A DNA stretch of 64,000 nt. It comes from Oscillospiraceae bacterium. Lineage in GTDB: Bacteria > Bacillota > Clostridia > Oscillospirales > Ruminococcaceae. The position numbers and the translations under genes were made by a program. Numbering within the stretch: the first letter of the stretch is position 1; the number at the start of each line of letters is the position of its first letter. Shown piece after piece: positions 1 through 28,338 of the stretch. Below the pieces are notes generated by a model. It saw only the letters and a program-made list of their open reading frames with translations, ran no database searches and was not told the origin of the DNA. The stretch is taken from positions 4,878 through 68,877 of the forward strand of contig JAZQIL010000183.1 of the NCBI GenBank assembly GCA_045541055.1, read 5' to 3'.

Positions 1-1251
1 GCGGCAACCTCCCCTGTTGAAACTGTAGAAAATCATGTTTCTGCTGAAAAGCAGGATAAAAATAAAAATGTTATCATTGGCAGAACTGTCAGAATTGATA
101 ATACTTCTTATGAAGAAGAAATTCCGGAAGTTCCGGAAGCTCCTGAAACTCCGGCGGAAATCTCCGCTGTTGCTCCTGTAGAAAATTACGTACAGGCACA
201 GGAAACCGCTCCTGCTGTTCAGGAACTGGAAACCATTCAGGAAACAACCCCAAATGCAGAAACTCCTGAACCTCAGCAGTCTACTGCTGTCACTGCAAGA
301 GTTTTTGTAAAATCTAATGTAAGTACAAAAACAACTCCAGAAACAACTGCTGTTCAGGAAACACAAGCTCCTACAGCTCCACAGACAGAAGCTCCTACTG
401 AACTTCCCGTCTCTGAAACAGAACAGCCTCAAACAACTCCCGAAACACAGCCCGCTGAAACTGTAAAGCCGGAAACAACAAATACAACTGCTCCTAAATC
501 ACTTACTGTAAAAGTAACTGTTCCAAGCATTTCTGCTCCTGCTGTTTCTAAAGTGGCTGAAACTACTGCTGAAACCACTACTTCCACCACTGATGAAACA
601 ACAACTACTACTTCAACAACTACTACTTCAACAACGACTACCACAACCACAACTTCCACTTCAACAACAACTACTACCACTACTGAACCTATCCTCACCA
701 CAACTGAAACAACCACTACTATCAGTGAAGCCGAAATTGTAGATGCTTCTGATTTCACTTTAGATGAGCTTTTAAGCGGAAACTTTGAAGAAATGGAAAC
801 TGCACAGGAATATGCTCCTGAAGTTCCTCAGGAAGCTCCTGTTGAAGTAGCTACTGAAAAAGTAGAAGAAACAGAAGCTGTTATAGAAGAAGTAGAGGAA
901 ATTTCTCCTGCTCTCTCTATCTCCAACAGAGAATACATTCTCCTCTGCAACTGTGTAGCACATGAAGCCGGTTCAGATGTCATCACAATCGAAAATAAAG
1001 CCAAAGTAGTAGAAGTAGTTATGAACCGTGTTGCTTCTTCTGAATTCCCGAATACTATTTACGGCGTTATTACACAAAAATATCAGTTCAGCGGTTCTTC
1101 TACCTATGCTGACTGCACTACCTATACAAGAAAAGTAACCGATAATGTAAAGGCTGCTGTAGATTTATACTTCGCTGACCCCTCTGCATTCAACCATGGT
1201 TATAAATATTTCTATGGTGACGGTTCTCAGAATCATTTCAGAGTTTCTTAA
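1..1251 (+). CDS. Cell-wall hydrolase with a C-terminal SleB/CwlJ-type domain; the 5' end lies outside the window
   Basis: Frame 1 is open from base 1 to the TAA at 1249-1251; the ORF track only begins at an internal GTG (553). The C-terminal ~110 aa (NREYILLCNCVAHEAGSD...VMNRVASSEFPNTIYGVITQKYQFS) fits the SleB/CwlJ Hydrolase_2 signature. A long Thr/Pro/Glu-rich low-complexity region precedes it. Confidence 0.75.
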   Translation, partial: AATSPVETVENHVSAEKQDKNKNVIIGRTVRIDNTSYEEEIPEVPEAPETPAEISAVAPVENYVQAQETAPAVQELETIQETTPNAETPEPQQSTAVTARVFVKSNVSTKTTPETTAVQETQAPTAPQTEAPTELPVSETEQPQTTPETQPAETVKPETTNTTAPKSLTVKVTVPSISAPAVSKVAETTAETTTSTTDETTTTTSTTTTSTTTTTTTTSTSTTTTTTTEPILTTTETTTTISEAEIVDASDFTLDELLSGNFEEMETAQEYAPEVPQEAPVEVATEKVEETEAVIEEVEEISPALSISNREYILLCNCVAHEAGSDVITIENKAKVVEVVMNRVASSEFPNTIYGVITQKYQFSGSSTYADCTTYTRKVTDNVKAAVDLYFADPSAFNHGYKYFYGDGSQNHFRVS

Positions 1252-1275
1252 TTTACTCTCTTTTGCAAATTTCTA

Positions 1276-1308
1276 ACAGAGTATTGCTGATGCAGTACTC
1301 TGTTTTTA
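1276..1308 (+). terminator. Intrinsic terminator after the SleB-like gene
   Basis: Hairpin ACAGAGTA(1276-1283)/TACTCTGT(1296-1303) followed by a T-run. Confidence 0.6.
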
Positions 1309-1378
1309 TTATTTCCGACAAAATTTATGTTTCTTTTTGTTTTTTTTAGAATTCTTTAAAATAATAACAAGATTTTAC

Positions 1379-1407
1379 TTGACGAATACTGAAAAATTCA
1401 GTATAAT
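1379..1407 (+). promoter_or_regulatory. Sigma-A-type promoter of the aroB-aroA-aroC unit
   Basis: TTGACG (1379-1384), 17-nt spacer, TATAAT (1402-1407), about 50 nt upstream of the aroB start. Confidence 0.55.
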
Positions 1408-1460
1408 ATAAGAGTAAGTTTTTTTTCATTTCCAGAAATTACAAAATGCAGGAGGTTCTT

Positions 1461-2510
1461 ATGCAAACAATTCATGTGCCTGTCAACGATGCTTATGATG
1501 TGCTTGTCGAACGTGGCATTCTCCAAAAATCCGGAGATATTATTCAAAAACTTGTTTCCGCTGAAACTTGTGTGATTATCACAGATGATAATGTAGATAA
1601 ATTCTATTCTCAAACTGTCGAACAGTCTCTCCAAAATTCCGGCTTTCGTACTGCTAAATTCGTTTTCCCTCACGGTGAAACTTCTAAAAATGCTGAAACG
1701 CTTCTTAAAATTTATACTTTCCTCTGTCAGCATGAAATTACCCGTTCCGATTGCTTAATTGCACTTGGCGGAGGTGTTGTCGGTGATATTACCGGATTCG
1801 CAGCAGCTACTTTCCTCAGAGGTCTCCCCTATATTCAAATTCCTACTTCTTTATTAGCGCAGGTAGACTCTTCTGTCGGCGGTAAAACAGCCATTGACCT
1901 CCCAGAAGGGAAAAATCTTGTCGGTGCATTCAAACAGCCTGTTGCTGTCCTCTGTGACCCCGATACCCTTAAAACACTCCCTGAACCTTTCCTGATTGAC
2001 GGTATGGGCGAAGTCATTAAATACGGCATGATTGCTGATGCAGAACTTTTCCAGAAATTATCTTCCTATGACCTGCATTCCGTTCATGAACATTTTGACG
2101 AAATTATACCTGCCTGCATTGCAATTAAACGTGATGTCGTTGCTGAAGATGAACTCGATACCGGTCTCAGAATGATTCTGAATTTTGGCCATACACTTGG
2201 CCATGCCATTGAAGCTTATTATCATTATGAAACTTACACACACGGCTGTGCAGTCGCTGCCGGTATGTGCTTAATTACGAAAATACTCGGCAATGAACAA
2301 GACTACCTCAAATTAAAAGCCTGTGCAGAACGCTATCACCTCCCTACAGATGTGCCTGCACCTCTCCCTGCACTTGCTGCACTCTGCGGAAATGACAAAA
2401 CACGCTCCGGTAAAAAACTCCGCTACATCATTTGTGACCCTATTGGAACTGCTGACATCAGAAGCGATTCTCTCTCTGACTTCCGAAATCATTTCGCTTC
2501 CCCGACCTGA
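1461..2510 (+). CDS. aroB: 3-dehydroquinate synthase
   Basis: Motifs GGGVVGDITGFAAATFLRGLPYIQIPTSLLAQVDSSVGGKTAIDLPEGKNLVGAFKQP and NFGHTLGHAIE. Start moved to the ATG at 1461, which follows GCAGGAGG; the ORF-track ATG at 1446 lies inside that RBS. Confidence 0.93.
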   Translation: MQTIHVPVNDAYDVLVERGILQKSGDIIQKLVSAETCVIITDDNVDKFYSQTVEQSLQNSGFRTAKFVFPHGETSKNAETLLKIYTFLCQHEITRSDCLIALGGGVVGDITGFAAATFLRGLPYIQIPTSLLAQVDSSVGGKTAIDLPEGKNLVGAFKQPVAVLCDPDTLKTLPEPFLIDGMGEVIKYGMIADAELFQKLSSYDLHSVHEHFDEIIPACIAIKRDVVAEDELDTGLRMILNFGHTLGHAIEAYYHYETYTHGCAVAAGMCLITKILGNEQDYLKLKACAERYHLPTDVPAPLPALAALCGNDKTRSGKKLRYIICDPIGTADIRSDSLSDFRNHFASPT

Positions 2511-2523
2511 AAGGATAATTTAC

Positions 2524-3759
2524 ATGAATATACAAATTCAACCTCATAAACTAAGGGGAAGAGTCAAAGTCCCCTCTTCTAAAAGCATTGCTCACAGAAT
2601 GTTAATCTGCGCTGCACTCAGCAAAGGTACTTCTGAAATTTCCGGCATCAGCTTTTCCAAAGATATTGAAGCCACTATTTCCGTCATGAAAGCCCTTGGA
2701 GCAGAAATTTCCATTCAGGAAGATACCGTTTTCGTCACTGGGCTGACGGAACGTCCAAAAAAGGCTCTTGCAGACTGCTGTGAAAGCGGTTCAACTTTAC
2801 GTTTCTTAATCCCTGTTGCTGCCGCTCTCGGTGCAGAAACCACCTTCACAGGACAGGGAAGACTCCCTCAGCGTCCCATTACCCCCTACTTGAGAGAACT
2901 CTCTCAAAAAGGCATTGCTTTCGACTACCAAAATACAATGCCTTTCACTATCAAAGGGCAGCTGCAAAGTGGTAAATTTCAGCTGGAAGGCGACATTTCT
3001 TCTCAATTTGTCACAGGTCTGCTGCTTGCACTCCCCCTCCTGAAAGAAGATTCTGAAATTTTTCTAACTTCCCCTTTAGAGTCACGCCCTTATGCGGATA
3101 TGACAGTACATTGTATGGAACAGTTCGGTGTATGTGTCAAAGAACTTCCGAACAGCTGGCATATTTTCGGCAATCAGCACTATCATGCAAAAACCCTCTC
3201 CGTAGAAGGCGATTTCTCTCAGGCTGCCTTTTTCTACGTTGCAAATGCAATCGGCAATCAAATTGTTCTTGAAAATATTCCTCCCAAATCCGTTCAGGGT
3301 GACAGAAAAATTGTGGAACTTATCGAAAAAATATGCTACCAGAAAAATGACAATCAGGATAAATTTCTAATTGATGCTAAAAATATTCCTGATTTAGTTC
3401 CCATTCTTGCTGTTCTTGCCACGTTCGGCCAAAAGCCTACTATTATCTGTAATGCACAAAGGCTCTGCATAAAAGAAAGTAATCGTCTTGAATCCACTGC
3501 TCACATGCTTAACGCACTCGGCGGAAAAGTTAAAATTCTCCCCGATGGTTTGGAAATTTACCCAGCTACTTTGCATGGCGGCACAGTCGACAGCGCAGGC
3601 GACCATAGAATCGCAATGTGTGCAGCAATTGCTGCTTCCCGTGCTTCTGAACCAGTAACCATTCAAGGCGCAGAATGCGTAGAAAAATCTTATCCAACAT
3701 TTTTTCAGGACTATCAGAATTTAGGAGGTATTATTCATGGCGTCCATTTGGAATCATAA
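2524..3759 (+). CDS. aroA: 3-phosphoshikimate 1-carboxyvinyltransferase (EPSP synthase)
   Basis: N-terminus MNIQIQPHKLRGRVKVPSSKSIAHRMLICAAL and later GDHRIAMCAAIAA are typical EPSPS motifs. The ORF-track start at 2323 lies inside aroB; the ATG at 2524 follows AAGGA. Confidence 0.93.
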   Translation: MNIQIQPHKLRGRVKVPSSKSIAHRMLICAALSKGTSEISGISFSKDIEATISVMKALGAEISIQEDTVFVTGLTERPKKALADCCESGSTLRFLIPVAAALGAETTFTGQGRLPQRPITPYLRELSQKGIAFDYQNTMPFTIKGQLQSGKFQLEGDISSQFVTGLLLALPLLKEDSEIFLTSPLESRPYADMTVHCMEQFGVCVKELPNSWHIFGNQHYHAKTLSVEGDFSQAAFFYVANAIGNQIVLENIPPKSVQGDRKIVELIEKICYQKNDNQDKFLIDAKNIPDLVPILAVLATFGQKPTIICNAQRLCIKESNRLESTAHMLNALGGKVKILPDGLEIYPATLHGGTVDSAGDHRIAMCAAIAASRASEPVTIQGAECVEKSYPTFFQDYQNLGGIIHGVHLES

Positions 3760-4813
3760 CATTTCTGTTTCTGTATTCGGCGAATCACAAGGACCTGCTA
3801 TCGGTGTGACAATTGACAATCTCCCCCCAGGTGAATATATTGATTCAAATCAACTTTCTCAGTTCATGGAACGGCATGGCACAGATGAAAATGGTCACCC
3901 TGCTTTAAGTCAGGTGATGTCCGGCATTCTGAATCACAGAACAACCGGTTCGCCCTTATGCGCTTTCATTCAAAATACTAGTCAACCCGTCCAAAACCTT
4001 TCACAAATTAACCGTCTCCCCCGCCCCGGCCATGCTGATTATACCGGCACGCTCCGTTATAAAGGCTTTAATGATATCCGTGACGGCGGTCATGTCTCTT
4101 ACTCTATGATGACCCCCTTATGCTTTGCCGGTGCAGTCTGCGCTCAAATCTTGGAACGAAGAGGCATTTACACAGGGGCGCATATTGAAGAAGTACACGG
4201 CATTCATGACAGAACATTCAATCATGTCTCCGTTACAAAAGAAGATATCCTTGCTGTACGCTATAAACAATTCCCCGTCATTCAAAACGCTCAGGGCGAG
4301 AAAATGCTTGCAGATATTCAGGCGGCTGCTAACGGCGGTGAAACCCTTGGTGGTGCAATTGAATGTGTTTCTGTCAATGTTCCGGCTGGTATCGGTTCTC
4401 CCGTCTTTAACGGTCTCGAAAATACCATTGCACAATTATTATTTGCTCTTCCTGATATTCGTGGCTTGGAATTCGGTGCTGGCTTCGATGTCACTGAAAT
4501 GACAGGCAGTCAATGCAACGATTCTTACTATGTAGACAAACACGGCCATATTAAAACCGCTTCCAATACACATGGCGGTATCCTTGGCGGTATCTCCTCC
4601 GGTATGCCCATTACGCTCAAAGTCGCTTTCCGTCCGCCTGCTTCCGTTGGAAAAGCACAGAAAACAATTAACCTTTCCAGCATGGAAACAGAAACACTTC
4701 CGCAACCTTCCGCTCCTGAATCCTGTATTCTTCCTAAACTAGTTCCCTGTGTGGAAGCTGCTGTCAATATCGCTTTACTTTCCCACATGCTGGAATATCC
4801 GCATTTCTGCTGA
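3737..4813 (+). CDS. aroC: Chorismate synthase
   Basis: FGESQGPAIGVTIDNLPPG, RPGHADYTG and GGISSGMPI motifs. AGGAGG lies 9 nt upstream. Overlaps the aroA stop by 23 nt. Confidence 0.93.
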   Translation: MASIWNHNISVSVFGESQGPAIGVTIDNLPPGEYIDSNQLSQFMERHGTDENGHPALSQVMSGILNHRTTGSPLCAFIQNTSQPVQNLSQINRLPRPGHADYTGTLRYKGFNDIRDGGHVSYSMMTPLCFAGAVCAQILERRGIYTGAHIEEVHGIHDRTFNHVSVTKEDILAVRYKQFPVIQNAQGEKMLADIQAAANGGETLGGAIECVSVNVPAGIGSPVFNGLENTIAQLLFALPDIRGLEFGAGFDVTEMTGSQCNDSYYVDKHGHIKTASNTHGGILGGISSGMPITLKVAFRPPASVGKAQKTINLSSMETETLPQPSAPESCILPKLVPCVEAAVNIALLSHMLEYPHFC

Positions 4814-4836
4814 TATCACTCAGAAAGGCCTACATC

Positions 4837-5406
4837 ATGCGTGATGAAAATTTACACAAAATTTCCGAACTTGCTGACCGTACTATTTCCGACCCCGTCA
4901 CTGCAAATATTCTGCTTTGTTATCTCATGCAGCAAATCGCAAAACCTCTTGATGCAGATATGCTTTACGATATTGCCGTTACCAATGGCATTATTAACTA
5001 TTTCGCATTTCAGGACGCTTTGCAGACAATGGAAGAAACAAATGCTATTTCCTGCGTGCAGAAAGATGACGGAAAATATTATTCCTTAACTGAAAAAGGT
5101 ATCGAACATGCTGAACACTTTCACCATCTTATCGGAAAATCTTACCGTGAACGTATTACTGAAATTGCTCAGTCTGCAGTAAAACGGCGTAAATTAGAAG
5201 AACAACTCAAAATTTCTTACGAACCGTTAGAACAAGGCTGTCATTTACACGTCCGCTTAGTTGACCATACACTTGTTCTTTTAGAATTAACCCTCTTTAC
5301 CCCCGATGAACATCAAGCTCACCTTCTGGGAGATAAAATTCTTTCCAATCCGACTGCGGTCTATCATAAAATTCTCCGTGCAGTCATACCAGAACAACAA
5401 GCTTAA
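4837..5406 (+). CDS. Small cytoplasmic protein, DUF4364-like (putative winged-helix)
   Basis: 189 aa with no signal peptide. The family call comes from overall resemblance recalled from memory only. Confidence 0.45.
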   Translation: MRDENLHKISELADRTISDPVTANILLCYLMQQIAKPLDADMLYDIAVTNGIINYFAFQDALQTMEETNAISCVQKDDGKYYSLTEKGIEHAEHFHHLIGKSYRERITEIAQSAVKRRKLEEQLKISYEPLEQGCHLHVRLVDHTLVLLELTLFTPDEHQAHLLGDKILSNPTAVYHKILRAVIPEQQA

Positions 5407-5460: not shown

Positions 5461-5492
5461 AGAAAAACCTCCTTTTTACGGGAGGTTTTTCA
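5461..5492 (-). terminator. Intrinsic terminator ending the scaffoldin locus
   Basis: On the minus strand, AAAACCTCC/GGAGGTTTT hairpin followed by a U-run, 23 nt after the stop of the 2249-aa gene. Confidence 0.65.
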
Positions 5493-5514: not shown

Positions 5515-8500
5515 TTATTCCTTACCAGTCATACCATTAAATTCGCCAATTTCCTTTGTATACTTCGGAAGCGGGCTTGTTAATGTGTCATACCAGTTCG
5601 GGTCGTTACCAGCACCCTGGTTAGCAGCGTATACGAGCATGAAGCCAGCATCGTTTGCACGCAGAGGTGAGTTCACGGTTTCGGAAATTGCATCAACTGC
5701 ACCATTGGAAGTAGCACCATGGTCTTCAGATTCGCCGTTGACATCGCTCAGGAAGTATACGAAATCTTCCAGAACAATCTTAGCATTTACTGCTTCTTCC
5801 AGTTCAGATAATTTCAGCTCTTCTTCTGTAATATCTTCAGCAAGAATCTTTGCTTCATTACCTGCACCGAAGTTCGCAGCATATACCAGAACGGATGCAG
5901 CATCCTTGGAGTTTACAACACCGTTCAGCGTTGTATCGCCCTTTACACCGATGTAAACAGTTCCTGTTACAGCTGCTGCATCATCTGCAAGCTCTTCTGT
6001 TACATTGCCGTTTTCATCTACATTGACAAACTTCCAGTCAGGTGCATTTTCCATGTTAGCATAATCTGCATTCACAGGAACAAATTTCAGTGTACTCTTG
6101 AAGTATGCATCATGTTTATTGCTGTTTGCATTGGCAACGATATAATCTCTGTACTTATCGGGTACCATTTCAGGGAATTCGTTTTCAAAGACAGCCTTCG
6201 GATTATTCAGGTCTTTATTCACCAGTTCAAAATCAACCAGTTCATTGACAGTAGACCAGTCGCTGACATGCGGATTTTCAGCAGTATTATCACTGTAGAT
6301 TTCACGTCTCTTCAGTGTACCTACTTCAATCAGGTCATTCTTCAGGTCAAACGGTCTGTTGTCATGTGAGAAGTAGAACTTCTTCTTGCCCTGAATATTG
6401 TACTGATACTGAACAACGGTAGGAACAACGTCTTCCGCCAGAACTTCAATATAGCCATCTACTTCAGTAACAGCAACTTTATTGTCGTTGACTTTGATTG
6501 CTTCTACTGTGTCGTTTACACCAGGTTCTTTGAAGGTGATTTTGTAGACATCAGCTGCTGTACCTTCTGGAACGTCAAAGTTCAGATATACAAGAATAGA
6601 GTTATTTGCAGCCTGTTCTTCATCTGCTGCACCAGCAAGTGTACCTGCAAACTGATTTTCAGTACCTTCTGTGATGTTCATCAACTTGTAAGAAGTACCA
6701 AGCGTAAAGCCAGTATACTTCGGACCTTCTTCGCCAAACTGGAAGTCAATATCAAACTTGAAGGAGTTCAGTTTCAAAGCTTCCAAATCTTCAGCAGTAA
6801 TTGTAATCGGAACGGAAACAGATGTGCCAGCATGTGTACTCTTGTTACCAATTTCCCATGTTGCTGTAAGGTCGCTGATTACTGGAGGCAATGTGTCAGA
6901 TTCAGTAGGAACTGTTTCAGAGCTGTCTTGTGTCGGCTCTACAGAAGGCTCAATGCTTTCATTTGTCTGGTCAGCAGTTTCGGAAGTATCTTCTGTAGAT
7001 TCAGAAGCCGGTTCACTGGAGGGTTCTGTAGATTCAGAAGCCGGTTCACTGGAAGGTTCTGTAGATTCAGAAACCGGTTCGCTGGAAGGTTCTGTAGATT
7101 CAGAAGCCGGTTCACTGGAAGGTTCTGTAGATTCAGAAGCCGGTTCACTGGAAGGTTCTGTAGATTCAGAAGCCGGTTCGCTGGAAGGTTCTGTAGATTC
7201 AGAAGCCGGTTCGCTGGAAGGTTCTGTAGATTCAGAAACCGGTTCGCTGGAAGGTTCTGTAGATTCAGAAACCGGTTCACTGGAAGGTTCTTCAGAAGAA
7301 GGAGCAATGACTTCAATCCAGCCAGGCTGCTTTTCAGGTGTCAGTTCAGCCATGTTAATGTCATAAACAGACAGGTCTGCAAAGGTCAGGTCATACTTGC
7401 CCGGTTCCATCGGAGCTGTGAAGGTTACATCAAATACAGTTGCGCCATCTTTGGAAAGTGCAATATTTTCTTTTACAGTTGTATTTGTCGCTGCAAAAGT
7501 CATGTTGTCAAGATTGGATACAAATTCCAGACCAGCATAAGCATCACCGTTTGCTGCTGCTGTACCATTGGTTAAGCCGGCAGCCAGACCCATCTTCATG
7601 ATGTAGCTGTTAATACCGTTCTTGTCACCCTTTACAGTAACAGGAATTGTAACGGTTGCACCAGGCTCTACAGTTGCTGTACCAATAATCCACATACCAG
7701 CATCGCCGATTTCAATTGATTCTTCTGTGCTTTCGGTAGGAGCTTCTGTACTTTCGGTGGGCTTTTCTGTGCTTTCAGCAGGAGCTTCTGTACTTTCAGT
7801 AGGAGCTTCTGTACTTTCAGTAGGAGCTTCTGTACTTTCTTCAGTAGCTTCACTGGTAGGAGCAATAACTTCAATCCAGCCAGGCTGCTTTTCAGGTGTC
7901 AGTTCAGACATGTTAATATCATAAACAGACAGGTCTGCAAAGGTCAGGTCATACTTGCCAGGTTCCATCGGAGCTGTGAAGGTTACATCAAATACAGTTG
8001 CACCGTCCTTGGAAAGTGCAATATTTTCTTTTACAGTTGTGTTTGTACCTGCAAAGGACATGTTGTCAAGATTGGATACAAATTCCAGACCAGCATAAGC
8101 ATCGCCGTTTGCTGCTGCTGTACCATTTGTTAAGCCATCAGCCAGACCCATCTTCATGATGTAGCTGTTAATACCGTTCTTATCACCAATTACAGTAACA
8201 GGAATAGTGACAGTTGCACCAGGTTCTACGGTTGCTGTGCCAATTACCCACAGACCAGCATCACTAACTTCACTAGGTAAAACTTGTTCACTGGTTTTTT
8301 CAGTAGTTTCAGTGGGCTTTTCTGTGGTTTCAGTAGGCTTTTCAGTAGGAACTTCTGTGCTGTCCGCAATCTTTTCAGTAGACCTTTCTGTAGTTTCAGT
8401 AGGAGCTTCTGTACTTTCTTCAGTAGCTTCACTGGTAGGAGCGATAACTTCAATCCAGCCGTTCTGCTTTTCAGGTGTCAACTCAGACATGTTAATGTCA

Positions 8501-11500
8501 TAAACAGACAAGTCTGCAAAGGTCAGGTCATACTTGCCAGGTTCCATCGGAGCTGTGAAGGTTACATCAAATACAGTTGCACCGTCTTTAGAAAGAGCAA
8601 CATTTTCTTTCACAGTTGTATTTGTACCGCCAAATGTCATGTTGTCAAGATTGGATACAAATTCCAGACCAGCATAAGCATCACCGTTTGCTGCTGCTGT
8701 ACCATTTGTCAGACCGGCAGCCAGACCCATCTTCATGATGTAGCTGTTAATACCGTTCTTGTCGCCCTTTACAGTAACAGGAATGGTGACAGTTGCACCA
8801 GGTTCTACGGTTGCTGTGCCAATAATCCACATACCAGCATCGCCGATTTCAATCGTTTCTGCTTCTGAAGTTTCTTCACTGGAAGGAGCGATAACTTCAA
8901 TCCAGCCGTTCTGCTTTTCAGGTGTCAGTGCAGACATGTTAATGTCATAAACAGACAGGTCATCAAATGTCAGGTCATACTTGCCCGGCTTTGTCGGTGC
9001 TGTGAAGGTTACATCAAATACAGTTGCGCCGTCTTTAGAAAGAGCAACATTTTCTTTCACAGTTGTGTTTGTACCGCCAAATGTCATGTTGTCAAGATTG
9101 GATACAAATTCCAGGCCAGCATAAGCATCGCCATTTGCTGCGGCTGTGCCGTTTGTCAAACCAGCTGCCAGACCCATCTTCATGATGTAGCTGTTAATAC
9201 CGTTCTTGTCGCCTTCTACAGTAACAGGAATGGTGACAGTTGCACCAGGTTCTACAGTTGCTGTACCGATAATCCACTTGCCAGCATCACCAACTTCAAC
9301 TGGAATTGACTCAGTTGTATCATCTACAACTTCAATCCAGCCGTTCTGCTGTTCAGGTGTCAGTGCAGACATGTTAATGTCATAAACAGACAAGTCATCA
9401 AATGTTAAGTCATACTTGCCCGGCTTTGTCGGTGCTGTAAATGTAACATCAAATACAGTTGCGCCGTCCTTGGAAAGGGCAACATTTTCTTTCACAGTTG
9501 TATTTGTACCGCCAAATGTCATGTTGTCAAGATTGGATACAAATTCCAGACCAGCATATGCATTGCCATTTGCTGCGGCTGTACCGTTTGTCAGACCAGC
9601 TGCCAGACCCATCTTCATGATGTAGCTGTTAATACCGTTCTTGTCGCCTTCTACAGTAACAGGAATGGTGACAGTTTCACCCGGTTTTACAGTTGCTGTA
9701 CCGATAATCCACTTGCCGGCACTTTCTGTAGTCGGAGTTTCATCTACAACTTCAATCCAACCATTTTCCTTTTCAGGAGTCAGTTCAGACATGTTAATGT
9801 CATAAACAGACAGGTCATCAAATGTTAAATCATACTTGCCAGGTGCTGTCGGTGCTGTAAATGTAACATCAAATACAGTTGCGCCGTCCTTGGAAAGTGC
9901 AATATTTTCCTTCACGCTGAAGTTTGTACCACCAAATGTCATGTTGTCAACATTGGAAGTAAAGTCAACAGAAGCATACGCATCTCCGCCGGAAGCAGCA
10001 GTTGCATTTGTCAGTCCTTCTGCTAAGCCCATCTTCATGATGTAGCTGTTAATACCGTTCTTATCCCCTTCTACAGTAACAGGAATGGTAACAGTTGCAC
10101 CGGGTTTCACGGTCTTTTTACCGATAATCCACTTACCAGCATCACCGACTTCAGGCTTATTTTTCACCTGAATCCAGCCATCTTCCTTGGAAGGAATCAG
10201 CTGATTCATATCAATGTCTTCGAGGTCAATATCTGCAAACTTCAGGTTATACTTTGTACCTGGTGCAGCATCGGACGGAACTTCAAATTCCATATAGAAT
10301 ACATCGCCGTCAGCAGCAACAATATTCTTCTTCTGGTCGGAATTTGTACCGCCAAATGTCAGATTATCTTTATTTGCCTGGAAGCTGAGTTCAGAATAAG
10401 CAGAGCCAGCAGTTGCACCAGTAGCTTTCGGACCAGCGTCCTGTGTAATCTTTACAAGGTAGCTGTTCAAACCGTCTTTATCGCCTTCAACAGATACCGG
10501 AACTTTTACAGTTTCGCCGGGTTCTGCTTCTACCTTGCCGATAACCCACTTTGCAGCAGTATCTTTCTGATTGTGAACGAATTCTTCGTCAACAACTTCA
10601 ATATAGCCATTTGTTGTCTTTGGAACAAGCTTGGTCATATCAATGTCATAAACAGAAAGGTCAGCAAATGTTAAATCATATTTGCCGGGAGCTGTCGGAG
10701 CTGTAAAGGTTACTTCAAATACAACTGCATCATCTGCTGCAACAATATTCTGTTTTTTGCTGTTATTTGTACCAGCAAAAGACATATTGTCAGTATTGGA
10801 TACAAAGGCTAAGTCAGCGTATGCACTGCCGGCAGCAGCAGCTGTGGCATTAGATAAGCCCTTTGCCAAGCCCATCTTCATGATATAGCTGTTAATGCCG
10901 TCTTTATCGCCCTTTACAGTAACAGGAATGGTAACAGTTTCGCCCGGTTTTACAGTCTTATTACCAATAATCCATTCAGCATCAATTTCTTTCTGCTGTT
11001 CTGTGAATTCAGTTGTTTTCTGAGTTTCGGTCTGCTTCTGAGTTTCGGTCTGCTTCTGGGTTTCAGTTGGCTTTTCTGTAGATTCGGTTGTCTGACCACC
11101 AGGAATTGTGATAGAACCAGCAGTTAAAGTAATGTCTTTATAAACATTCTTTTCATAGTCAGCGAACTTATAACCTGTAGAAGCAAATGTAATCTTATAA
11201 GTAGTGCCAGGGACAAATGTATCTATTGTTGTGCCTTCTTTTGGAATAAACTGAAGCTGAACAGCAGATGCACCATCAGCAGCTTTGTCATTGCCTTCGC
11301 CATTGAAAGAGATAGCAATGTCACCAGTTTCCAGATTCGGCTGAAGTGTACCAATCTTAGCATAACCGCCGCCGTCTACTACATCATAGAGTTCAAACGG
11401 ACAGCTTGGGTCAGAAATTTCCTTGCCATCAACTAAAATCTGGAACTGCGCACCATAGAGACCAGGGTCATTATTTACAAAAATATCAACATCAACTTCA

Positions 11501-12264
11501 TCTTTAGAAAGGTCTTTGGGAGTATATTCCACATCTGCAATATCCCATTCATAACCCTTGGAAGCGGCAGGTTCTGTTTTATCAGTTGTTTTCTGAGTTT
11601 CAGTTTGCTTCTGAGTTTCAGTCTGCTTCTGTGTTTCAGTCGGCTTTTCCGTAGATTCGGTTGTCTGACCACCAGGAATCGTGATAGAACCAGCTGTCAG
11701 AATAATATCTTTGTAAACATTCTTGTCATAGTCAGCGAACTTATAGCCTGTAGAAGCAAAGGTTACTTTATAAGTTGTACCCGGTACATAGTCTACACCT
11801 TCCTTAGGAATCAGCTGGAGCTGTACAGCAGCTGTACCATTTGCAGCCTTATCATTGCCTTCACCAGTGAAGGAGATAGCAACATCACCTGTGTCAAGGT
11901 TTGGCTGAAGTGTGCTAATTTTGGCATAACCGCCACCGTCTACTACATCATAGAGTTCAAACGGGCAGTCTGGGTCAGAAAAGTCCTTGCCGTCAATCAG
12001 AATTTTGAACTGTACGCCATAAGTACCAGGGTCGTTGTAAACGTTAATATCAAGGTCGACTTCGTCCTTAGCGATATCCACAGGTGTATATTCTACATCT
12101 GCGATGTCCCATTCGTAACCCTTGTCATGTGCAGAAGTGTCATTTGCAGCTGCAATCACTGTATCCACTGGTGTCAGGGCATTCAAAGCCGAAGCCGGAA
12201 GTACACCAGTCGCCATGGAAGCACACATGCACAACGCTGTCAATGCAGATAATATTTTCTTCAT
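5515..12264 (-). CDS. Giant cellulosomal scaffoldin (ScaB-like): signal peptide, 11 cohesin modules, X module, C-terminal dockerin
   Basis: 2249-aa ORF starting with signal peptide MKKILSALTALCMCASMATGVLPASA. Contains 2 modules starting GYEWDIADVEYTP, 8 modules starting W(I/V)IG...PG.TVT(I/V)PV and 1 divergent module starting TWEIGNKSTHAGTSVSVPI. The C-terminus has paired Ca-binding-like segments (NGVVNSKDAASVLVYAANFGAG ... ANDAGFMLVYAANQGAGN). Confidence 0.9.
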   Translation of the reverse strand: MKKILSALTALCMCASMATGVLPASALNALTPVDTVIAAANDTSAHDKGYEWDIADVEYTPVDIAKDEVDLDINVYNDPGTYGVQFKILIDGKDFSDPDCPFELYDVVDGGGYAKISTLQPNLDTGDVAISFTGEGNDKAANGTAAVQLQLIPKEGVDYVPGTTYKVTFASTGYKFADYDKNVYKDIILTAGSITIPGGQTTESTEKPTETQKQTETQKQTETQKTTDKTEPAASKGYEWDIADVEYTPKDLSKDEVDVDIFVNNDPGLYGAQFQILVDGKEISDPSCPFELYDVVDGGGYAKIGTLQPNLETGDIAISFNGEGNDKAADGASAVQLQFIPKEGTTIDTFVPGTTYKITFASTGYKFADYEKNVYKDITLTAGSITIPGGQTTESTEKPTETQKQTETQKQTETQKTTEFTEQQKEIDAEWIIGNKTVKPGETVTIPVTVKGDKDGINSYIMKMGLAKGLSNATAAAAGSAYADLAFVSNTDNMSFAGTNNSKKQNIVAADDAVVFEVTFTAPTAPGKYDLTFADLSVYDIDMTKLVPKTTNGYIEVVDEEFVHNQKDTAAKWVIGKVEAEPGETVKVPVSVEGDKDGLNSYLVKITQDAGPKATGATAGSAYSELSFQANKDNLTFGGTNSDQKKNIVAADGDVFYMEFEVPSDAAPGTKYNLKFADIDLEDIDMNQLIPSKEDGWIQVKNKPEVGDAGKWIIGKKTVKPGATVTIPVTVEGDKNGINSYIMKMGLAEGLTNATAASGGDAYASVDFTSNVDNMTFGGTNFSVKENIALSKDGATVFDVTFTAPTAPGKYDLTFDDLSVYDINMSELTPEKENGWIEVVDETPTTESAGKWIIGTATVKPGETVTIPVTVEGDKNGINSYIMKMGLAAGLTNGTAAANGNAYAGLEFVSNLDNMTFGGTNTTVKENVALSKDGATVFDVTFTAPTKPGKYDLTFDDLSVYDINMSALTPEQQNGWIEVVDDTTESIPVEVGDAGKWIIGTATVEPGATVTIPVTVEGDKNGINSYIMKMGLAAGLTNGTAAANGDAYAGLEFVSNLDNMTFGGTNTTVKENVALSKDGATVFDVTFTAPTKPGKYDLTFDDLSVYDINMSALTPEKQNGWIEVIAPSSEETSEAETIEIGDAGMWIIGTATVEPGATVTIPVTVKGDKNGINSYIMKMGLAAGLTNGTAAANGDAYAGLEFVSNLDNMTFGGTNTTVKENVALSKDGATVFDVTFTAPMEPGKYDLTFADLSVYDINMSELTPEKQNGWIEVIAPTSEATEESTEAPTETTERSTEKIADSTEVPTEKPTETTEKPTETTEKTSEQVLPSEVSDAGLWVIGTATVEPGATVTIPVTVIGDKNGINSYIMKMGLADGLTNGTAAANGDAYAGLEFVSNLDNMSFAGTNTTVKENIALSKDGATVFDVTFTAPMEPGKYDLTFADLSVYDINMSELTPEKQPGWIEVIAPTSEATEESTEAPTESTEAPTESTEAPAESTEKPTESTEAPTESTEESIEIGDAGMWIIGTATVEPGATVTIPVTVKGDKNGINSYIMKMGLAAGLTNGTAAANGDAYAGLEFVSNLDNMTFAATNTTVKENIALSKDGATVFDVTFTAPMEPGKYDLTFADLSVYDINMAELTPEKQPGWIEVIAPSSEEPSSEPVSESTEPSSEPVSESTEPSSEPASESTEPSSEPASESTEPSSEPASESTEPSSEPASESTEPSSEPVSESTEPSSEPASESTEPSSEPASESTEDTSETADQTNESIEPSVEPTQDSSETVPTESDTLPPVISDLTATWEIGNKSTHAGTSVSVPITITAEDLEALKLNSFKFDIDFQFGEEGPKYTGFTLGTSYKLMNITEGTENQFAGTLAGAADEEQAANNSILVYLNFDVPEGTAADVYKITFKEPGVNDTVEAIKVNDNKVAVTEVDGYIEVLAEDVVPTVVQYQYNIQGKKKFYFSHDNRPFDLKNDLIEVGTLKRREIYSDNTAENPHVSDWSTVNELVDFELVNKDLNNPKAVFENEFPEMVPDKYRDYIVANANSNKHDAYFKSTLKFVPVNADYANMENAPDWKFVNVDENGNVTEELADDAAAVTGTVYIGVKGDTTLNGVVNSKDAASVLVYAANFGAGNEAKILAEDITEEELKLSELEEAVNAKIVLEDFVYFLSDVNGESEDHGATSNGAVDAISETVNSPLRANDAGFMLVYAANQGAGNDPNWYDTLTSPLPKYTKEIGEFNGMTGKE
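5518..6420 (-). other. X module plus atypical dockerin with a long insert (approximate bounds)
   Basis: The region from VVQYQYNIQGKKKFYF to the C-terminus has two dockerin repeat segments separated by about 60 aa. This resembles the X-dockerin arrangement described for R. flavefaciens ScaB/CttA. Confidence 0.6.
6426..6875 (-). other. Eleventh, divergent cohesin-like module (approximate bounds)
   Basis: LTATWEIGNKSTHAGTSVSVPITI...NSFKFDIDFQF...FAGT...LVYLNFDVPEGTAADVYKITF...VDGYIEVL keeps the cohesin strand pattern. It is clearly unlike the other ten modules. Confidence 0.6.
7001..7290. repeat. 33-bp in-frame tandem repeat, about 9 copies, encoding the PSSEP(A/V)SESTE linker
   Basis: The unit ttctgtagattcagaagccggttcactggaagg recurs head to tail. 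The translation shows nine PSSEP[AV]SESTE units. Confidence 0.95.
7305..10985 (-). repeat. Array of eight B-type cohesin modules; the five nearest the C-terminus (about 7305-9715) are near-identical at the DNA level
   Basis: The landmark atgttaat(g/a)tcataaacagaca(g/a)gtc recurs near 7352, 7911, 8491, 8937, 9372 and 9792. Aligned by eye, the units differ by scattered substitutions only. Confidence 0.9.
11100..12130 (-). other. Two A-type cohesin modules separated by a TETQKQ-repeat linker (approximate bounds)
   Basis: Two copies of GYEWDIADVEYTP...DPG.YG.QF.IL(I/V)DGK...CPFELYDVVDGGGYAKI...GTTYK(V/I)TFASTGYKFADY.KNVYKDI.LTAGSITIPGG. The same module occurs once in the 641-aa protein. Confidence 0.7.
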
Positions 12265-12372: not shown

Positions 12373-14298
12373 TTAAGCAGTCGGGAGGGAAGCAACCAGA
12401 CCAATCAGGTACTTCAGAATTTCAACGGAGTCAGCACCAGTCAGGTCAGCCTTCTTGGTATCAACAACGTCTTTGGTCTTATTACCAGCGCAGTTTGCAA
12501 CTTCCATCTGGTTTTCATTCAGAGTCTGGTTGTCATAACCTGTGAGATATCTGTTGAGCATAACGATATCAACGAGTTCAACCTTGCCGTTCTGGTTTAC
12601 GTCACCGTAGAGGAGGTCACCATCATCTCCTGATGCAGGAGCCTTGGTTTCTGTAGGTGTTTCCTTGGTTTCTGTAGGTGTTTCCTTAGTTTCAGTAGGT
12701 GTTTCCTTGGTTTCTGTAGGAGTTTCCTTAGTTTCTGTAGGTGTTTCCTTAGTTTCTGTAGGCTTGGTTTCTTCTGTAGCTTCTGTTGTATCTTCGCCGC
12801 CCGGAATCTTGATAGAACCAGCTGTCAGAACGATATCCTTGTAAACGTTCTTGTCATAGTCAGCGAACTTGTAGCCTTCTGTTGCAAATGTAACCTTGTA
12901 AGTAGTGCCAGGTACAAATGTTTCAGCTGTTACGCCTTCCTTCGGAATGAACTGTAACTGTACAGCAGCTGTACCATCAGCAGCCTTGTCATTGCCTTCA
13001 CCGTTGAAGGAAATAGCAATGTCACCAGTGTCGAGGTTCGGCTGAAGTGTACCAATCTTAGCATAACCGCCGCCGTCTACTACATCATAGAGTTCAAACG
13101 GGCAGCTCGGGTCAGAAATTTCCTTGCCATCAATCAGAACCTTGAACTGTACACCATAAGTACCAGGGTCATTGTAAACGTTGATATCAACGTCAACTTC
13201 GTCCTTGCTCATATCAACAGGTGTATATTCTACATCAGCGATATCCCATTCATAGCCCTTGTCATGGCTTGCTTCTGAAGGCTCTACCTTTTCAGTAGGA
13301 GTTTCCTTGGTTTCTGTAGGAGTTTCCTTGGTTTCTGTAGGTGTTTCCTTGGTTTCAGTAGGAGTTTCCTTGGTTTCTGTAGGTGTTTCCTTGGTTTCTG
13401 TAGGTGTTTCCTTGGTTTCTGTAGGAGTTTCTTTAGTTTCTGCCTGAGCATCGCCAACTACGATAGTGATACCAGACATGCTAGCAGGAACAACAACATC
13501 CTTTGTACCTACGTTTACGAAGGAAGAAGTAGTTTTGCCATACTGCTGATGGTCATAGGATTCAGCATAATCTACAGTGTAAACACCGTCTTTGATATCC
13601 TTGTCGAGTTCAATTGTAAATTCTGTTACAGGGAAATCATCGGACTTTGCACCGAGGAATGCAGCAGTATCCTTTGTTGCACCATCGCCCTTACCGGACA
13701 GATTGTACATCCAAATCCAGAGCAGTACTTCAGGACCTGTGTAAGTATCAGCCCATGCCCATTCAGAGCTGTGAACGTATGTGATAGAGCTTGTATTGTC
13801 AGCATATGTGCCTTTTCTTGAATCAACATAGCCAAATGCACTAACAAAGCGGTCTGCTGTAAAGTCACCGGATTTTGCAGTGTAAGTAGCTTCTGCATCA
13901 CCTGCTACAGCCTTGCTGAGGTTTGCACCACTCTGGCCGTCGCCACTGGGGTCATGCTGAATGTGAACGTTCTTGCCGTCAACTTCTACCAGACCGCCAA
14001 CGGACTGTACAGACGGGCTGGAAACATCTGCTACCATGTAAGCATCAATACCGATTTTTGCACCAGCTGCATCTGCTGCGCTTGCAAATGTGATGGTCTT
14101 GCCATCTTCGGAAACTGTGAACTTAGCATCCTGTGCCTTCTTTGTGATTGTGCCGGATACATCATAATAGGAATCCGGATTCACTCTCATAGTAAAAGCG
14201 ATATCGCTTGGACCATAAACAGCAAACGCAGACATTACGCTTGCAGACATACTTGCTACCATTGTGGCAGCTGTCAGTGCAGAAATTACCTTCTTCAT
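12373..14298 (-). CDS. Scaffoldin (ScaA-like): signal peptide, unassigned ~260-aa N-terminal domain, A-type cohesin, C-terminal dockerin
   Basis: Signal peptide MKKVISALTAATMVASMSASVMSAFA and two KETPTET-repeat linkers. The cohesin module is almost identical in sequence to the first two of the 2249-aa protein. Dockerin: GDVNQNGKVELVDIVMLNRYL...GADSVEILKYLIGLV. Confidence 0.88.
   Translation of the reverse strand: MKKVISALTAATMVASMSASVMSAFAVYGPSDIAFTMRVNPDSYYDVSGTITKKAQDAKFTVSEDGKTITFASAADAAGAKIGIDAYMVADVSSPSVQSVGGLVEVDGKNVHIQHDPSGDGQSGANLSKAVAGDAEATYTAKSGDFTADRFVSAFGYVDSRKGTYADNTSSITYVHSSEWAWADTYTGPEVLLWIWMYNLSGKGDGATKDTAAFLGAKSDDFPVTEFTIELDKDIKDGVYTVDYAESYDHQQYGKTTSSFVNVGTKDVVVPASMSGITIVVGDAQAETKETPTETKETPTETKETPTETKETPTETKETPTETKETPTETKETPTEKVEPSEASHDKGYEWDIADVEYTPVDMSKDEVDVDINVYNDPGTYGVQFKVLIDGKEISDPSCPFELYDVVDGGGYAKIGTLQPNLDTGDIAISFNGEGNDKAADGTAAVQLQFIPKEGVTAETFVPGTTYKVTFATEGYKFADYDKNVYKDIVLTAGSIKIPGGEDTTEATEETKPTETKETPTETKETPTETKETPTETKETPTETKETPTETKAPASGDDGDLLYGDVNQNGKVELVDIVMLNRYLTGYDNQTLNENQMEVANCAGNKTKDVVDTKKADLTGADSVEILKYLIGLVASLPTA
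12645..12775. repeat. 21-bp in-frame tandem repeat (about 6 copies) encoding the KETPTET linker
   Basis: The unit ggtttctgtaggtgtttcctt repeats head to tail. Confidence 0.9.
13294..13440. repeat. 21-bp in-frame tandem repeat (7-8 copies) encoding a second KETPTET linker
   Basis: The unit gtaggagtttccttggtttct repeats head to tail. It is the same repeat family as 12645-12775. Confidence 0.9.
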
Positions 14299-14417: not shown

Positions 14418-15257
14418 TCAAAGGTCAGCTTCTGTAATCATGCCAACAATCAGTTTCAGAACAGACATAGATTCGCTGGAATCCGGCTTGCTGTTGCCAT
14501 TGAAGTCAATGTTCTTGAGACCTTGTTCAGTCAGATTTTCCTTACCCATGATTGCCTTATTGATACTGATAACGTCAAGAATATCTACTTCACCGTTGCA
14601 GTCAGCATCACCTTTCTTACCTGTAGCAGGAGCTACATCTGTAGGCTTCTGTTCGGTAGTATCTTCAGCCTTACCAACAACAACTGCGCCGTTTGTAGAC
14701 TTTACAGCATAACCTGTAATTGTGCCGTCAGCACTCATTGTACCGATGTTGATATCGCTGTTTGCTTTGCCTGAACCGTCATAGGTTTCACGGCTGATAG
14801 CCTGGAACTTAATGTCGTAAGTACCATCTTTTGTGCCGTCTTTTACTTTACCGTTCAGTGTCAGGAACACACCGTCTTTTGTTACCCAGTAAGTGCTGTC
14901 ATCTAATGCAACACCATAAGTAACAGTAACAGTACCGTCTACGGAATAGTCAGCATCAAAAACGGTAACACCTTCAAAGCCTTCTTTTGCAGAAGCACCA
15001 GTATTTACGATTGCACCAGCTTCTGCACCAGTAATTGCAATTGCAGCAGAATCATAGGTCAGTTCAAATTCAACAGCATTCACACCAGCAGCAGGAACAC
15101 CGCTCAAACTAATTGCCATTGTAAAATCAGAGCCCGCAGTTGCTTTCACCTTTTCTCCGCTTACGGTAACAGTGTCAGCAGCAAAAACATTTTGTGCTGC
15201 GATGGTGGTCAACATGGAAACGGCAGCCAAAGCGGCAGCGATTTTCCTTACTCTCAT
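14418..15257 (-). CDS. Adaptor scaffoldin (ScaC-like): signal peptide, one cohesin, one dockerin
   Basis: MRVRKIAAALAAVSMLTTIAAQNVFA, then the cohesin pattern (VKATAGSDFTMAISLSGVPAAGVNAVEFELTYDSAAIAI...GTYDIKFQ). Dockerin: GDADCNGEVDILDVISINKAIMGKENL...FNGNSKPDSSESMSVLKLIVGMI. Start set at the ATG at 15257, preceded by GAAGGAGG. The ORF-track start at 15410 lies inside the predicted promoter. Confidence 0.88.
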   Translation of the reverse strand: MRVRKIAAALAAVSMLTTIAAQNVFAADTVTVSGEKVKATAGSDFTMAISLSGVPAAGVNAVEFELTYDSAAIAITGAEAGAIVNTGASAKEGFEGVTVFDADYSVDGTVTVTYGVALDDSTYWVTKDGVFLTLNGKVKDGTKDGTYDIKFQAISRETYDGSGKANSDINIGTMSADGTITGYAVKSTNGAVVVGKAEDTTEQKPTDVAPATGKKGDADCNGEVDILDVISINKAIMGKENLTEQGLKNIDFNGNSKPDSSESMSVLKLIVGMITEADL

Positions 15258-15381
15258 AATTGTCTTTCCTCCTTCATTTGTTTGGAAACATAAAATTAAA
15301 TCATACGTGTATATAACGGGTGGAAGAACTTCCTTCCCTATTATATTCTGTGACAGGACTGCCCCACATCTACTTATTGTT

Positions 15382-15410
15382 ATTATAGGACAAAATATCA
15401 CATAAGTCAA
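15382..15410 (-). promoter_or_regulatory. Sigma-A-type promoter of the scaffoldin locus
   Basis: On the minus strand, TTGACT (15410-15405), 17-nt spacer, TATAAT (15387-15382). This implies a 5' UTR of about 120 nt. Confidence 0.6.
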
Positions 15411-26199: not shown

Positions 26200-27420
26200 T
26201 TAAGCATGAAAATCTGTAATTAGACCGACAATATATTTCAGGAGGGTGAGGGCTTCACTGGAATCGGGCTTGCCGTTGCCGTTAAAGTCGATAGCTTTCA
26301 AGCCGTTTTCTGAGAGGTTTTCTTTTCCCATGATGGCTTTATTGATGGTGATAACGTCCAAAATATCAATTTCTCCGTTGCCGTCAGCGTCACCCTGTTT
26401 GAGTTCTTCTGTTTTGGGTTCTGAGCCGATAAGGGCGAATTGATAGCCATATTTTTCGGCATAAGCCTGAGCAGTTGAGCCTTCATAGCCATAAAGTGTG
26501 CCAGTGAATTCACGTTTTTTTGTTTCATTATTCCATCTGTTTGAAAATGTATCTCCATCACCATGCTCATCAATATTACAATCTGGATTTTTTATTATAA
26601 TAGAATCCAAATTTTCACATGTTGAAAATGCACTATACCCAATTTTATTTACGCTTTCTGGAATAGTAATAGAGGTTAAACTAGAACAGTTATCGAATGC
26701 CATTGCTCCAATACTTGTCACATTATCTGGAATTATTATAGAAGTTAAATTAGAACACCCATTGAATGACTCATCTCCAATATTTATTACACTTTCAGGA
26801 ATTGTAATAGAAGTTAAGTTAGAACATCTGGCAAATGCACCAGCTTCAATGCTTATTACACTATTTGGAATAGTATATTCTTTTTCAGCTTTTTTGAGAG
26901 AATACCATACTAATGAAGTTTTATCTTTATTAAATAAAATGTCATCTTCAACAATATAAGCAGTATTATTTTCAGAAACTGTAATAGTTAAATTGGGACA
27001 GTTAGAAAACGCACATCTCCAAATACTTACCACACTATCTGGAATCGTTATAGAAGTCAATTCAGAACAAAATCTGAATGCACCACTTTTAATACCTATC
27101 ACACTATCTGGAATAACTACAGAAGTCAAATTTGAACAATACGCAAATGCATTATATCCGATATTTGTCACAGGAAAGCCATCAATTTCAGCTGGAATGA
27201 CTGCTTCTGTGATTTTCTTATCTGTCACACCAGAAATTTCTACATAATCTGCATATTTTTCATACTTCAGGTTTTCATATGTACCTTCTGTATATTCTAC
27301 ATCTTCTCCCTCTGCATTCGCTGAAATGACAGCACTTTCCTGCACCGGAAGCACCGGCACAACAGCCCCCATCATACATAAAGCCACTAACCCTGCACAA
27401 AATCTTTTGAGTTTCATCAT
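26200..27420 (-). CDS. Secreted BspA-type leucine-rich-repeat protein with a C-terminal dockerin (paralogue of 22492-24117)
   Basis: Signal peptide MMKLKRFCAGLVALCMMGAVVPVLP. Repeated IP.SV..I...AF..CS.LTSI.IP units. The dockerin GDADGNGEIDILDVITINKAIMGKENL...FNGNGKPDSSEALTLLKYIVGLI is almost identical to that of the 541-aa paralogue. Confidence 0.85.
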   Translation of the reverse strand: MMKLKRFCAGLVALCMMGAVVPVLPVQESAVISANAEGEDVEYTEGTYENLKYEKYADYVEISGVTDKKITEAVIPAEIDGFPVTNIGYNAFAYCSNLTSVVIPDSVIGIKSGAFRFCSELTSITIPDSVVSIWRCAFSNCPNLTITVSENNTAYIVEDDILFNKDKTSLVWYSLKKAEKEYTIPNSVISIEAGAFARCSNLTSITIPESVINIGDESFNGCSNLTSIIIPDNVTSIGAMAFDNCSSLTSITIPESVNKIGYSAFSTCENLDSIIIKNPDCNIDEHGDGDTFSNRWNNETKKREFTGTLYGYEGSTAQAYAEKYGYQFALIGSEPKTEELKQGDADGNGEIDILDVITINKAIMGKENLSENGLKAIDFNGNGKPDSSEALTLLKYIVGLITDFHA

Positions 27421-28294: not shown

Positions 28295-28338
28295 AGTCAT
28301 CACCCCTGATAAATTACAAACCACAGCCAGCAAATATC

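Follow-up and report, generated by a model that had tools for sequence, protein, structure and literature searches.

How many kinds of docking site can one ruminococcal scaffoldin carry, and which partners would they receive? The scaffoldin ScaB is the backbone that fixes how many and which enzymes a ruminococcal cellulosome carries. The 64,000-nucleotide stretch analysed here (the window; contig JAZQIL010000183.1 of an Oscillospiraceae bacterium, GenBank assembly GCA_045541055.1) encodes a ScaB-like protein of 2249 residues with eleven cohesins, numbered c1 to c11 from the N-terminus. An earlier account drawn from the letters without database searches (the sequence-only reading) had sorted these modules into three sequence classes. 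Here, we find using Pfam and profile searches, predicted structures complemented with fold searches, and a phylogeny of cohesin modules that they fall into at least four: A-type (c1 and c2), B-repeat (c5 to c10 with the diverged c3), c4, and the terminal c11 (C-type). We put the probability at roughly 70% that the protein is the ScaB-type primary or anchoring scaffoldin of a cellulosome like that of Ruminococcus flavefaciens, that it comes from an uncultured Ruminococcus of the rumen or hind gut, and that its gene is the last of a scaC-scaA-scaB operon.

The scaB-like gene is a single open reading frame (ORF) that runs from ATG to stop with its frame intact over 6.7 kb. Module boundaries were set by anchoring on recurring start and end motifs; the boundary between the X-module and the dockerin is approximate, the two together (X-Doc) covering residues 1943-2249. 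The N-terminus with its signal peptide is the same in four homologues (P0001, P0002, P0007 and P0009), and the linkers joining the cohesins are rich in Thr, Glu, Pro and Ser. Among the B-type modules (c3-c10), c3, c4, c5 and c10 were tested against Pfam Cohesin and score 27-46 bits, above the gathering cutoff of 24.1, and the B-type modules match the structure of Coh5 from ScaB of R. flavefaciens FD-1 (5N5P_A). The terminal c11 falls just below the cutoff at 23.5 bits; a profile of seven c11 orthologues matches 5N5P_A (E=1.9e-11) and aligns with the B-type modules at 99.5% in hhalign, and c11 is a true cohesin within a conserved clade of last cohesins before X-Doc. The A-type modules, whose evidence is weighed below, are divergent cohesins. 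Pfam, family profiles, hhalign and fold matches together establish that all eleven modules are cohesin homologues, and the description of one 2249-residue scaffoldin with eleven cohesins stands, with an intact ORF and cohesin homology for every class.

The sequence-only reading had proposed a tree of the modules, and in that tree (neighbour-joining, 156 modules, with bootstraps on 97 of them) they do not form one tight clade. All A-type modules group at 88%, and the three of the window, c1, c2 and the cohesin at residues 346-500 of the neighbouring 641-residue ScaA-like protein, group at 100%. The near-identity claimed for these three is borne out, c1 and c2 sharing 82% of their residues with one another and 86-88% with the neighbour's cohesin. 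Within a species, the A-type modules of ScaA sit with those of ScaB in the tree; this pattern points to concerted evolution of the two sets of copies and is expected if both share one partner set. Modules c5-c10 group at 93% and have a mutual amino-acid identity of 81-96%; c3, ~70% (69-72%) identical to them, joins at 58%. Module c4 is 47-53% identical to the other B-type modules of the window and 64-76% identical to the second B-type cohesin of ScaB proteins from six other species, with which it groups at 97%, apart from all other modules of the window. The clade c3-c10 receives 0%. The earlier view that modules 3-10 form a family of their own therefore holds in part: all carry the motif on which it was founded and are Pfam cohesins where tested, but the set is heterogeneous, and three classes are too few because c4 is a separate orthologous class across species. 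Calling module 11 an outlier was apt, as c11 is only 22-28% identical to every other module; it groups at 95% with the last cohesin before X-Doc of five species.

ScaB of R. flavefaciens FD-1 has nine cohesins of two subtypes, group-1 dockerins being bound by the ScaA-like cohesins 1-4 and the ScaA dockerin by cohesins 5-9 (PMC5301203; PMC4081043), a precedent of mixed cohesins that had been correctly invoked. With this protein (structures 5M2O, 5AOZ and 5N5P) the window ScaB shares a signal peptide, tandem type-III-like cohesins and a C-terminal X-dockerin, the order of ScaA-like N-terminal cohesins followed by homologues of Coh5, and a gene position downstream of scaC-scaA. However, the identity between their cohesins is only ~25-30%, nine cohesins in two classes stand against eleven in at least four, and only the window protein has, in c4, a class confined to one position and, at its end, a divergent cohesin fused to X-Doc, whereas FD-1 Coh9 resembles Coh5 (PMC5934362). 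The A-type cohesins of the window show no specific relationship to Coh1-4 of FD-1, and R. flavefaciens has cttA-scaE after scaB whereas the window does not. ScaB of R. flavefaciens 17, with seven cohesins of one subtype, shares the family, the anchoring by X-Doc and the sca cluster (PMC4081043), but it lacks ScaA-like cohesins; the window protein mixes types as FD-1 does and goes further. ScaB-like ORFs of metagenome-assembled genomes (MAGs; UBA7013, locus L021, protein P0007, 2844 residues; rabbit Lapin-002, L005, P0023, 1911 residues; SIG535, L007) have the same layout, gene order and downstream genes and orthologous c4 and terminal cohesins, yet their overall identity to the window protein is at most 50%, their copy numbers differ and several carry a further class, called first-B below. 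In CipA of Clostridium (Acetivibrio) thermocellum, too, the last cohesin adjoins an X-dockerin anchoring dyad, with the same specificity as the other CipA cohesins; the cohesin and dockerin types differ from those of the window, and only in the window is that cohesin an outlier. The Coh9-X-DocII end of CipA (PDB entry 4FL4) is among the Foldseek matches of two models, one for an A-type module and one for the N-terminal module of the ScaA-like protein.

What would each class bind? By analogy with FD-1, c1 and c2 would directly bind the same dockerin class as the cohesin of the ScaA-like adaptor, namely enzyme-borne and ScaC-type dockerins, an assignment that draws on the concerted evolution of these copies. 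The B-repeat cohesins, and probably c4, would receive the unique ScaA-type dockerin. That dockerin, carried by the 641-residue protein, aligns full-length with the FD-1 ScaA dockerin 5N5P_B (E=1.5e-7), its atypical extended second half included; other PDB dockerins match only its first repeat. The hydrophobic contacts of the FD-1 ScaA dockerin (PMC5934362) are kept (V662 as L, V666 as V, V721 as I), as is N669. Profiles of the B-repeat, c4 and C-type modules score highest on FD-1 Coh5, the ScaA-dockerin binder, at 40-46 bits. Judged by these alignments, the B-type modules and this dockerin are the window homologues of the FD-1 ScaB-Coh5/ScaA-Doc pair. Seven or eight ScaA-like adaptors at most could then be stacked on one ScaB; the earlier figure of up to eight at modules 3-10 is uncertain for c4, because c4 is a separate class. 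Through the X-Doc the assembly may attach to a ScaE-like cohesin that is anchored by sortase and whose gene would lie in another part of the genome. The X-Doc matches the CttA XDoc (4IU2_B/4WKZ_A, phmmer E=2.2e-6 over residues 2063-2177), and its dockerin has long insertions between and after the Ca-loops, with repeats of the form NSKDAASVLVYAANFGAG / ANDAGFMLVYAANQGAG. For c11, its fusion to X-Doc almost without a linker and a rate of change as fast as that of X-Doc suggest that it would most likely receive a different, lineage-specific partner or act with the anchoring dyad.

Rates, taken as the mean pairwise distance across 15 genomes, are slow for the ScaA dockerin (0.37), c4 (0.45) and B-repeat (0.47) and fast for the ScaB dockerin (0.62), c11 (0.63) and A-type (0.68), and the slow ScaA dockerin is probably not a partner of c11. 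Several points weigh against assigning the protein to an FD-1-like scheme. All partners are assigned by analogy, and FD-1, from which they are taken, has cohesins as distant as stated above. The mirror-tree correlations with the ScaA-dockerin distances (Spearman rho 0.51 for c4, 0.36 for B-repeat and -0.22 for c11) come from non-independent pairs and best-hit segments and are only suggestive. The A-type profile gives similar scores for FD-1 Coh5 (31.5 bits) and the group-1 binder Coh3 (28.9 bits); since it has no preference for Coh3, the A-type modules are not recognisable as orthologues of FD-1 ScaA or of ScaB Coh1-4, and direct enzyme docking at c1-c2 would follow from architecture, not from a sequence relationship. 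AlphaFold2 (AF2) models an A-type module with medium quality, at a predicted local distance difference test (pLDDT) score of 63.7. The specificity determinants of FD-1 (the Ala-811/Lys switch) do not transfer, as every class in the window has a small residue at 811. Neither cttA nor scaE follows scaB in the window or stands beside scaB in the relatives, and the anchor is assumed because no ScaE-like cohesin or CttA was seen in the window or in the relatives' flanks.

Could the array itself, or the identity of its first modules, be misread? Draft assemblies often truncate or collapse repetitive scaffoldin genes (PMC11557425), and a metagenome contig from ENA (L001), collinear with the window at ~87% DNA identity, shows only six B-type modules and frameshifts. 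At that identity, however, L001 is a different species-level lineage, and the eight B-type copies of the window all differ in DNA: c5-c10 are 79-95% identical, and c3 and c4 are ~61-76% identical to the rest. Synonymous codon differences among c5-c10 outnumber non-synonymous ones (20 vs 6 for c7/c8, for example) in a frame that stays open, and in the array that Tandem Repeats Finder (TRF) reports over c5-c10, with a period of ~435-447, the linkers vary between copies. Because of the 5-21% DNA difference, the synonymous excess and linkers unlike each other, the tandem copies did not arise from misassembly, and a true ScaB with fewer or more cohesins, or an artefact in part of the array, is very improbable. 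A doubt of another sort attaches to the A-type modules, which have no Pfam match even at E<=10, retrieve only antibody noise and no cohesin from the PDB in a single-sequence phmmer search, and are modelled at medium confidence; they might be some other beta-sandwich, a carbohydrate-binding module (CBM) or an Ig-like spacer common to ScaA and ScaB, that does not bind dockerins. Yet a profile of 26 A-type modules spans three R. flavefaciens ScaB cohesin structures full-length at E-values of 1e-5 to 1e-7 (5N5P_A 7.8e-7, 5M2O_A 2.6e-5, 5AOZ_A 3.7e-5), hhalign joins it to the Pfam-positive B-type at 98% probability (E=1.5e-13), and nine of the ten top Foldseek matches of the model are cohesins, the best being 4UYQ_A (E=7e-4, with a TM score of only ~0.5). 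Moreover, ruminococcal ScaA cohesins, those of cultured R. flavefaciens included, likewise escape PF00963 (PMC11557425; PMC13463774), and an A-type module is the sole sequence-detectable cohesin in a protein that bears a ScaA-type dockerin. Modules other than cohesins at these positions are hardly credible.

More room is left for other roles of c4 and c11 than the FD-1 scheme would give them. Being single-copy and conserved in position in at least seven species, closer to its counterparts elsewhere than to its own neighbours, and untouched by the tandem homogenisation seen in c5-c10, c4 could be a dedicated site for one conserved partner, an adaptor or a key enzyme, instead of a ScaA-dockerin site, and the specificities on ScaB would then be those of A, B-repeat, c4 and c11. 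On 13 interface positions mapped from 5N5P, c5-c10 are uniform, c4 differs at 7/13 with a pattern that recurs in its orthologues, and c11 differs at most, but the mapping was made at ~28% identity and is unreliable; of the cohesin-side contacts of FD-1 only Phe-812 is kept in the window modules. Against a dedicated c4 speak its distances, which track the ScaA dockerin best of all modules (partial rho 0.41), its profile, the most Coh5-like relative to Coh3 (40.9 vs 18.3 bits), and FD-1 Coh8, which despite its divergence is still in the set that binds the ScaA dockerin (PMC5934362); we regard such a role as less likely than not. As for c11, it abuts the X-module almost without a linker while 139 residues part it from c10, it diverges along with the X-module, and it is missing from some relatives, such as P0012 with its A2-B3-XDoc layout; it might have no ligand of its own and belong structurally to a rigid Coh-X-Doc anchor, in the manner of the last cohesin beside X-DocII in CipA, or be a degenerate ScaA-dockerin site. 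The terminal clade is kept in most complete ScaB proteins of the clade, however, with a full cohesin core that argues for a maintained function, and its fast rate and negative co-variation speak against a ScaA-dockerin site, which makes both of these readings rather unlikely. The segment at issue differs strongly from that of L001. In protein sequence c11 is 55% identical to its L001 counterpart, against 84-95% for the other cohesins. In DNA, window positions 5973-7288 (minus strand) show hardly any match to L001 13600-15075, while the flanks are ~87% identical; the segment runs over the linker after c10, c11 itself, the X-module and the N-terminal portion of the ScaB dockerin. Either it is hypervariable, or an anchoring cassette has been recombined here. 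Within this segment, a 33-bp tandem repeat at 6991-7291 (minus strand; 9.1 copies, 97% matches in TRF) encodes nine 11-residue repeats SEPSSEPxSESTEP, far more regular than other linkers, and is a likely hotspot of length variation.

It is conceivable, if doubtful, that ScaB of this clade offers more docking specificities than that of FD-1, with c4 for one special partner, c11 for a lineage-specific one and a second, cryptic cohesin on the ScaA-like adaptors. The c11 partner would then be, for instance, the XDoc-like dockerins of CAP-domain proteins (see below) or another ScaB, which would allow chaining. If true, this would define a distinct ruminococcal cellulosome archetype beside the flavefaciens-, champanellensis- and callidus-like ones.

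How widespread is the ScaB-type scaffoldin proposed here? Relatives were found by scanning GTDB species representatives with a full-length ScaA-like alignment, which gave 24 loci, all from uncultured Ruminococcus/Oscillospiraceae MAGs of the rumen or hind-gut (roe deer, buffalo, sheep and rabbit included) and none from a cultured strain. Local hidden Markov models for each module class find scaC-scaA-scaB and the layout A(1-5)-B(3-11)-[C]-XDoc in ~23/24 MAG loci and in L001; L025 matched on the dockerin only. A search with the full-length ScaB protein returned nine MAG proteins without a name, the best at 50% identity. ScaB has 14 cohesins in 2844 residues in L021 (UBA7013), 11 in 2192 residues in L017, and at least 12 before the contig ends in L007. 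The window protein had been called larger and more heterogeneous than those of the reference strains; this is true against the cultured FD-1 and strain 17 but not within its clade, where it is ordinary, a member of a little-described group and not a new kind of system. In six relatives (L002, L003, L005, L007, L011 and L021) we also observed a first-B cohesin class with a cross-species clade of its own, outside which lie c3 of the window, being of the repeat type, and its L001 equivalent; some relatives would thus have five cohesin classes.

The known concept of cellulosome assembly is unchanged by these findings. The FD-1 design, with ScaA-like and ScaA-dockerin-binding cohesins on one chain, appears as the rule in ~20 uncultured species of the herbivore gut, and this clade adds to it two more cohesin classes, each tied to its position. 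The A-type family has very few members: one fragment was found in a word-indexed set of 5.8 billion proteins, and an exhaustive search of 1.84 billion proteins gave 22 representatives, 3 of them spurious repeat proteins. With the predicted enzyme-docking A-type cohesins and the N-module of ScaA invisible to Pfam, metagenome cohesin counts underestimate such systems. Modules c1, c4, c7, c11 and the ScaA N-module are supplied here for specificity mapping.

Table. Positions of the scaC-scaA-scaB unit and its modules in the window
Feature	Residues	Window positions	Strand	Evidence
scaB-like gene, 2249-aa scaffoldin		5515..12264	-	ORF list, translation; Pfam Cohesin E=1.7e-46; PDB matches 5N5P_A and 4IU2_B
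Signal peptide (MKKILSALTALCMCASMATGVLPASA, then LNA)	1-26	12187..12264	-	read from translation; putative cleavage site by the AXA rule
c1, A-type	47-198	11671..12126	-	88% identity to ScaA-like cohesin; A-type profile, hhalign
c2, A-type	235-389	11098..11562	-	86% identity to ScaA-like cohesin, 82% to c1
c3, B-type, diverged relative of the repeat family	429-558	10591..10980	-	Pfam Cohesin 41.5 bits
c4, distinct orthologous B-type subclass	571-701	10162..10554	-	Pfam Cohesin 46.5 bits
c5-c10, recent tandem B-type repeats		7306..10137	-	identity, TRF array, bootstrap
c5	710-840	9745-10137	-	
c6	850-980	9325-9717	-	
c7	995-1125	8890-9282	-	
c8	1144-1274	8443-8835	-	
c9	1337-1467	7864-8256	-	
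c10	1523-1653	7306-7698	-	
Long c10-c11 linker (139 aa)	1654-1792	6889..7305	-	TRF, translation
c11, terminal C-type	1793-1942	6439..6888	-	Pfam near cutoff, C-type profile, hhalign, bootstrap
X-module	~1943-2100	5965..6438	-	conserved with C-termini of P0007 and P0012; weak Pfam CttA_N match
Dockerin with long insertions, ScaB/CttA XDoc type	~2101-2249	5518..5964	-	phmmer
scaA-like gene, 641 aa		12373..14298	-	translation; dockerin match; N-module AF2/Foldseek
ScaA-like cryptic cohesin-like N-module	27-286	13441-14220	-	AF2 and Foldseek
ScaA-like A-type cohesin	346-500	12799-13263	-	
ScaA-like ScaA-type dockerin		12376-12618	-	
scaC-like gene, one cohesin and dockerin		14418..15410	-	Pfam Cohesin 54 bits, Dockerin_1
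Terminator-like hairpin, 24 nt past the scaB stop		5462..5491	-	11-bp stem, then T-run

The scaC-like and scaA-like genes lie directly upstream of scaB on the same strand, and the sole strong terminator-like hairpin of the unit follows scaB, which points to a transcription unit scaC-scaA-scaB. The ScaC-like ORF was called from a TTG at 15410 (330 residues), which a promoter-like site at 15410-15382 overlaps, and the L001 orthologue has 279 residues; the real start is probably an ATG downstream. On the 3' side of scaB, window positions 1-5406 hold DUF4364 and shikimate genes (chorismate synthase, EPSP synthase and DHQ synthase) on the other strand, and DUF4364 and shikimate genes also follow scaB in L005, L006, L010, L011, L014, L017 and L021, with no cttA-scaE there. 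The 64-kb window has no further cohesin and no C-terminal LPXTG.

The ScaA-like protein had been credited with a single cohesin. Its N-terminal ~260 residues have no sequence match in Pfam or the PDB, a PDB profile search included, and reach only 3% against the A-type profile in hhalign. An AF2 model (pLDDT 75, predicted TM score 0.78, with a low-confidence insertion of ~90 residues) has cohesins as its top 14 Foldseek matches, R. flavefaciens ScaC, ScaE and ScaB Coh3 among them (E ~1e-4, TM score by target 0.41-0.66). As far as this model goes, the adaptor probably has two cohesin-like modules, the second being cryptic and N-terminal. The N-module is kept in every ScaA-like protein of the clade, and the architecture of N-module, A-type cohesin and dockerin is found in 22 fetched loci (L001-L023; from L024 only the ScaB-like ORF was recovered).

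The count of ten dockerins in the window was correct, and they comprise ~5 sequence types: the ScaA type; one common to ScaC and two BspA-type leucine-rich repeat (LRR) proteins; one common to two proteins of unknown kind (29601-31133 and 32312-33082); an XDoc-like type common to ScaB and two CAP-domain proteins; and a type-I-like dockerin inside an enzyme. The two CAP (cysteine-rich secretory protein family) genes are adjacent (27575-28342 and 28339-29415, both minus strand), and their dockerin repeats, NASDAA..YAA..GAG, resemble the ScaB X-Doc; these dockerins are candidate direct binders of the cell surface (ScaE-type) or of c11. The BspA-LRR genes (22492-24117 and 26200-27420, both minus strand) flank a phosphoenolpyruvate carboxykinase gene, and the dockerins of the two are almost identical and closely resemble the ScaC-like one (GDADGNGEIDILDV...IDFNGNGKPDS). 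The enzyme, encoded at 55589-59395 on the plus strand, is a bifunctional hemicellulase of 1268 residues with the order GH10-CBM4_9(x2)-dockerin-GH43-CBM6, and it recalls the group-3/6 enzymes of FD-1, which bind ScaC.

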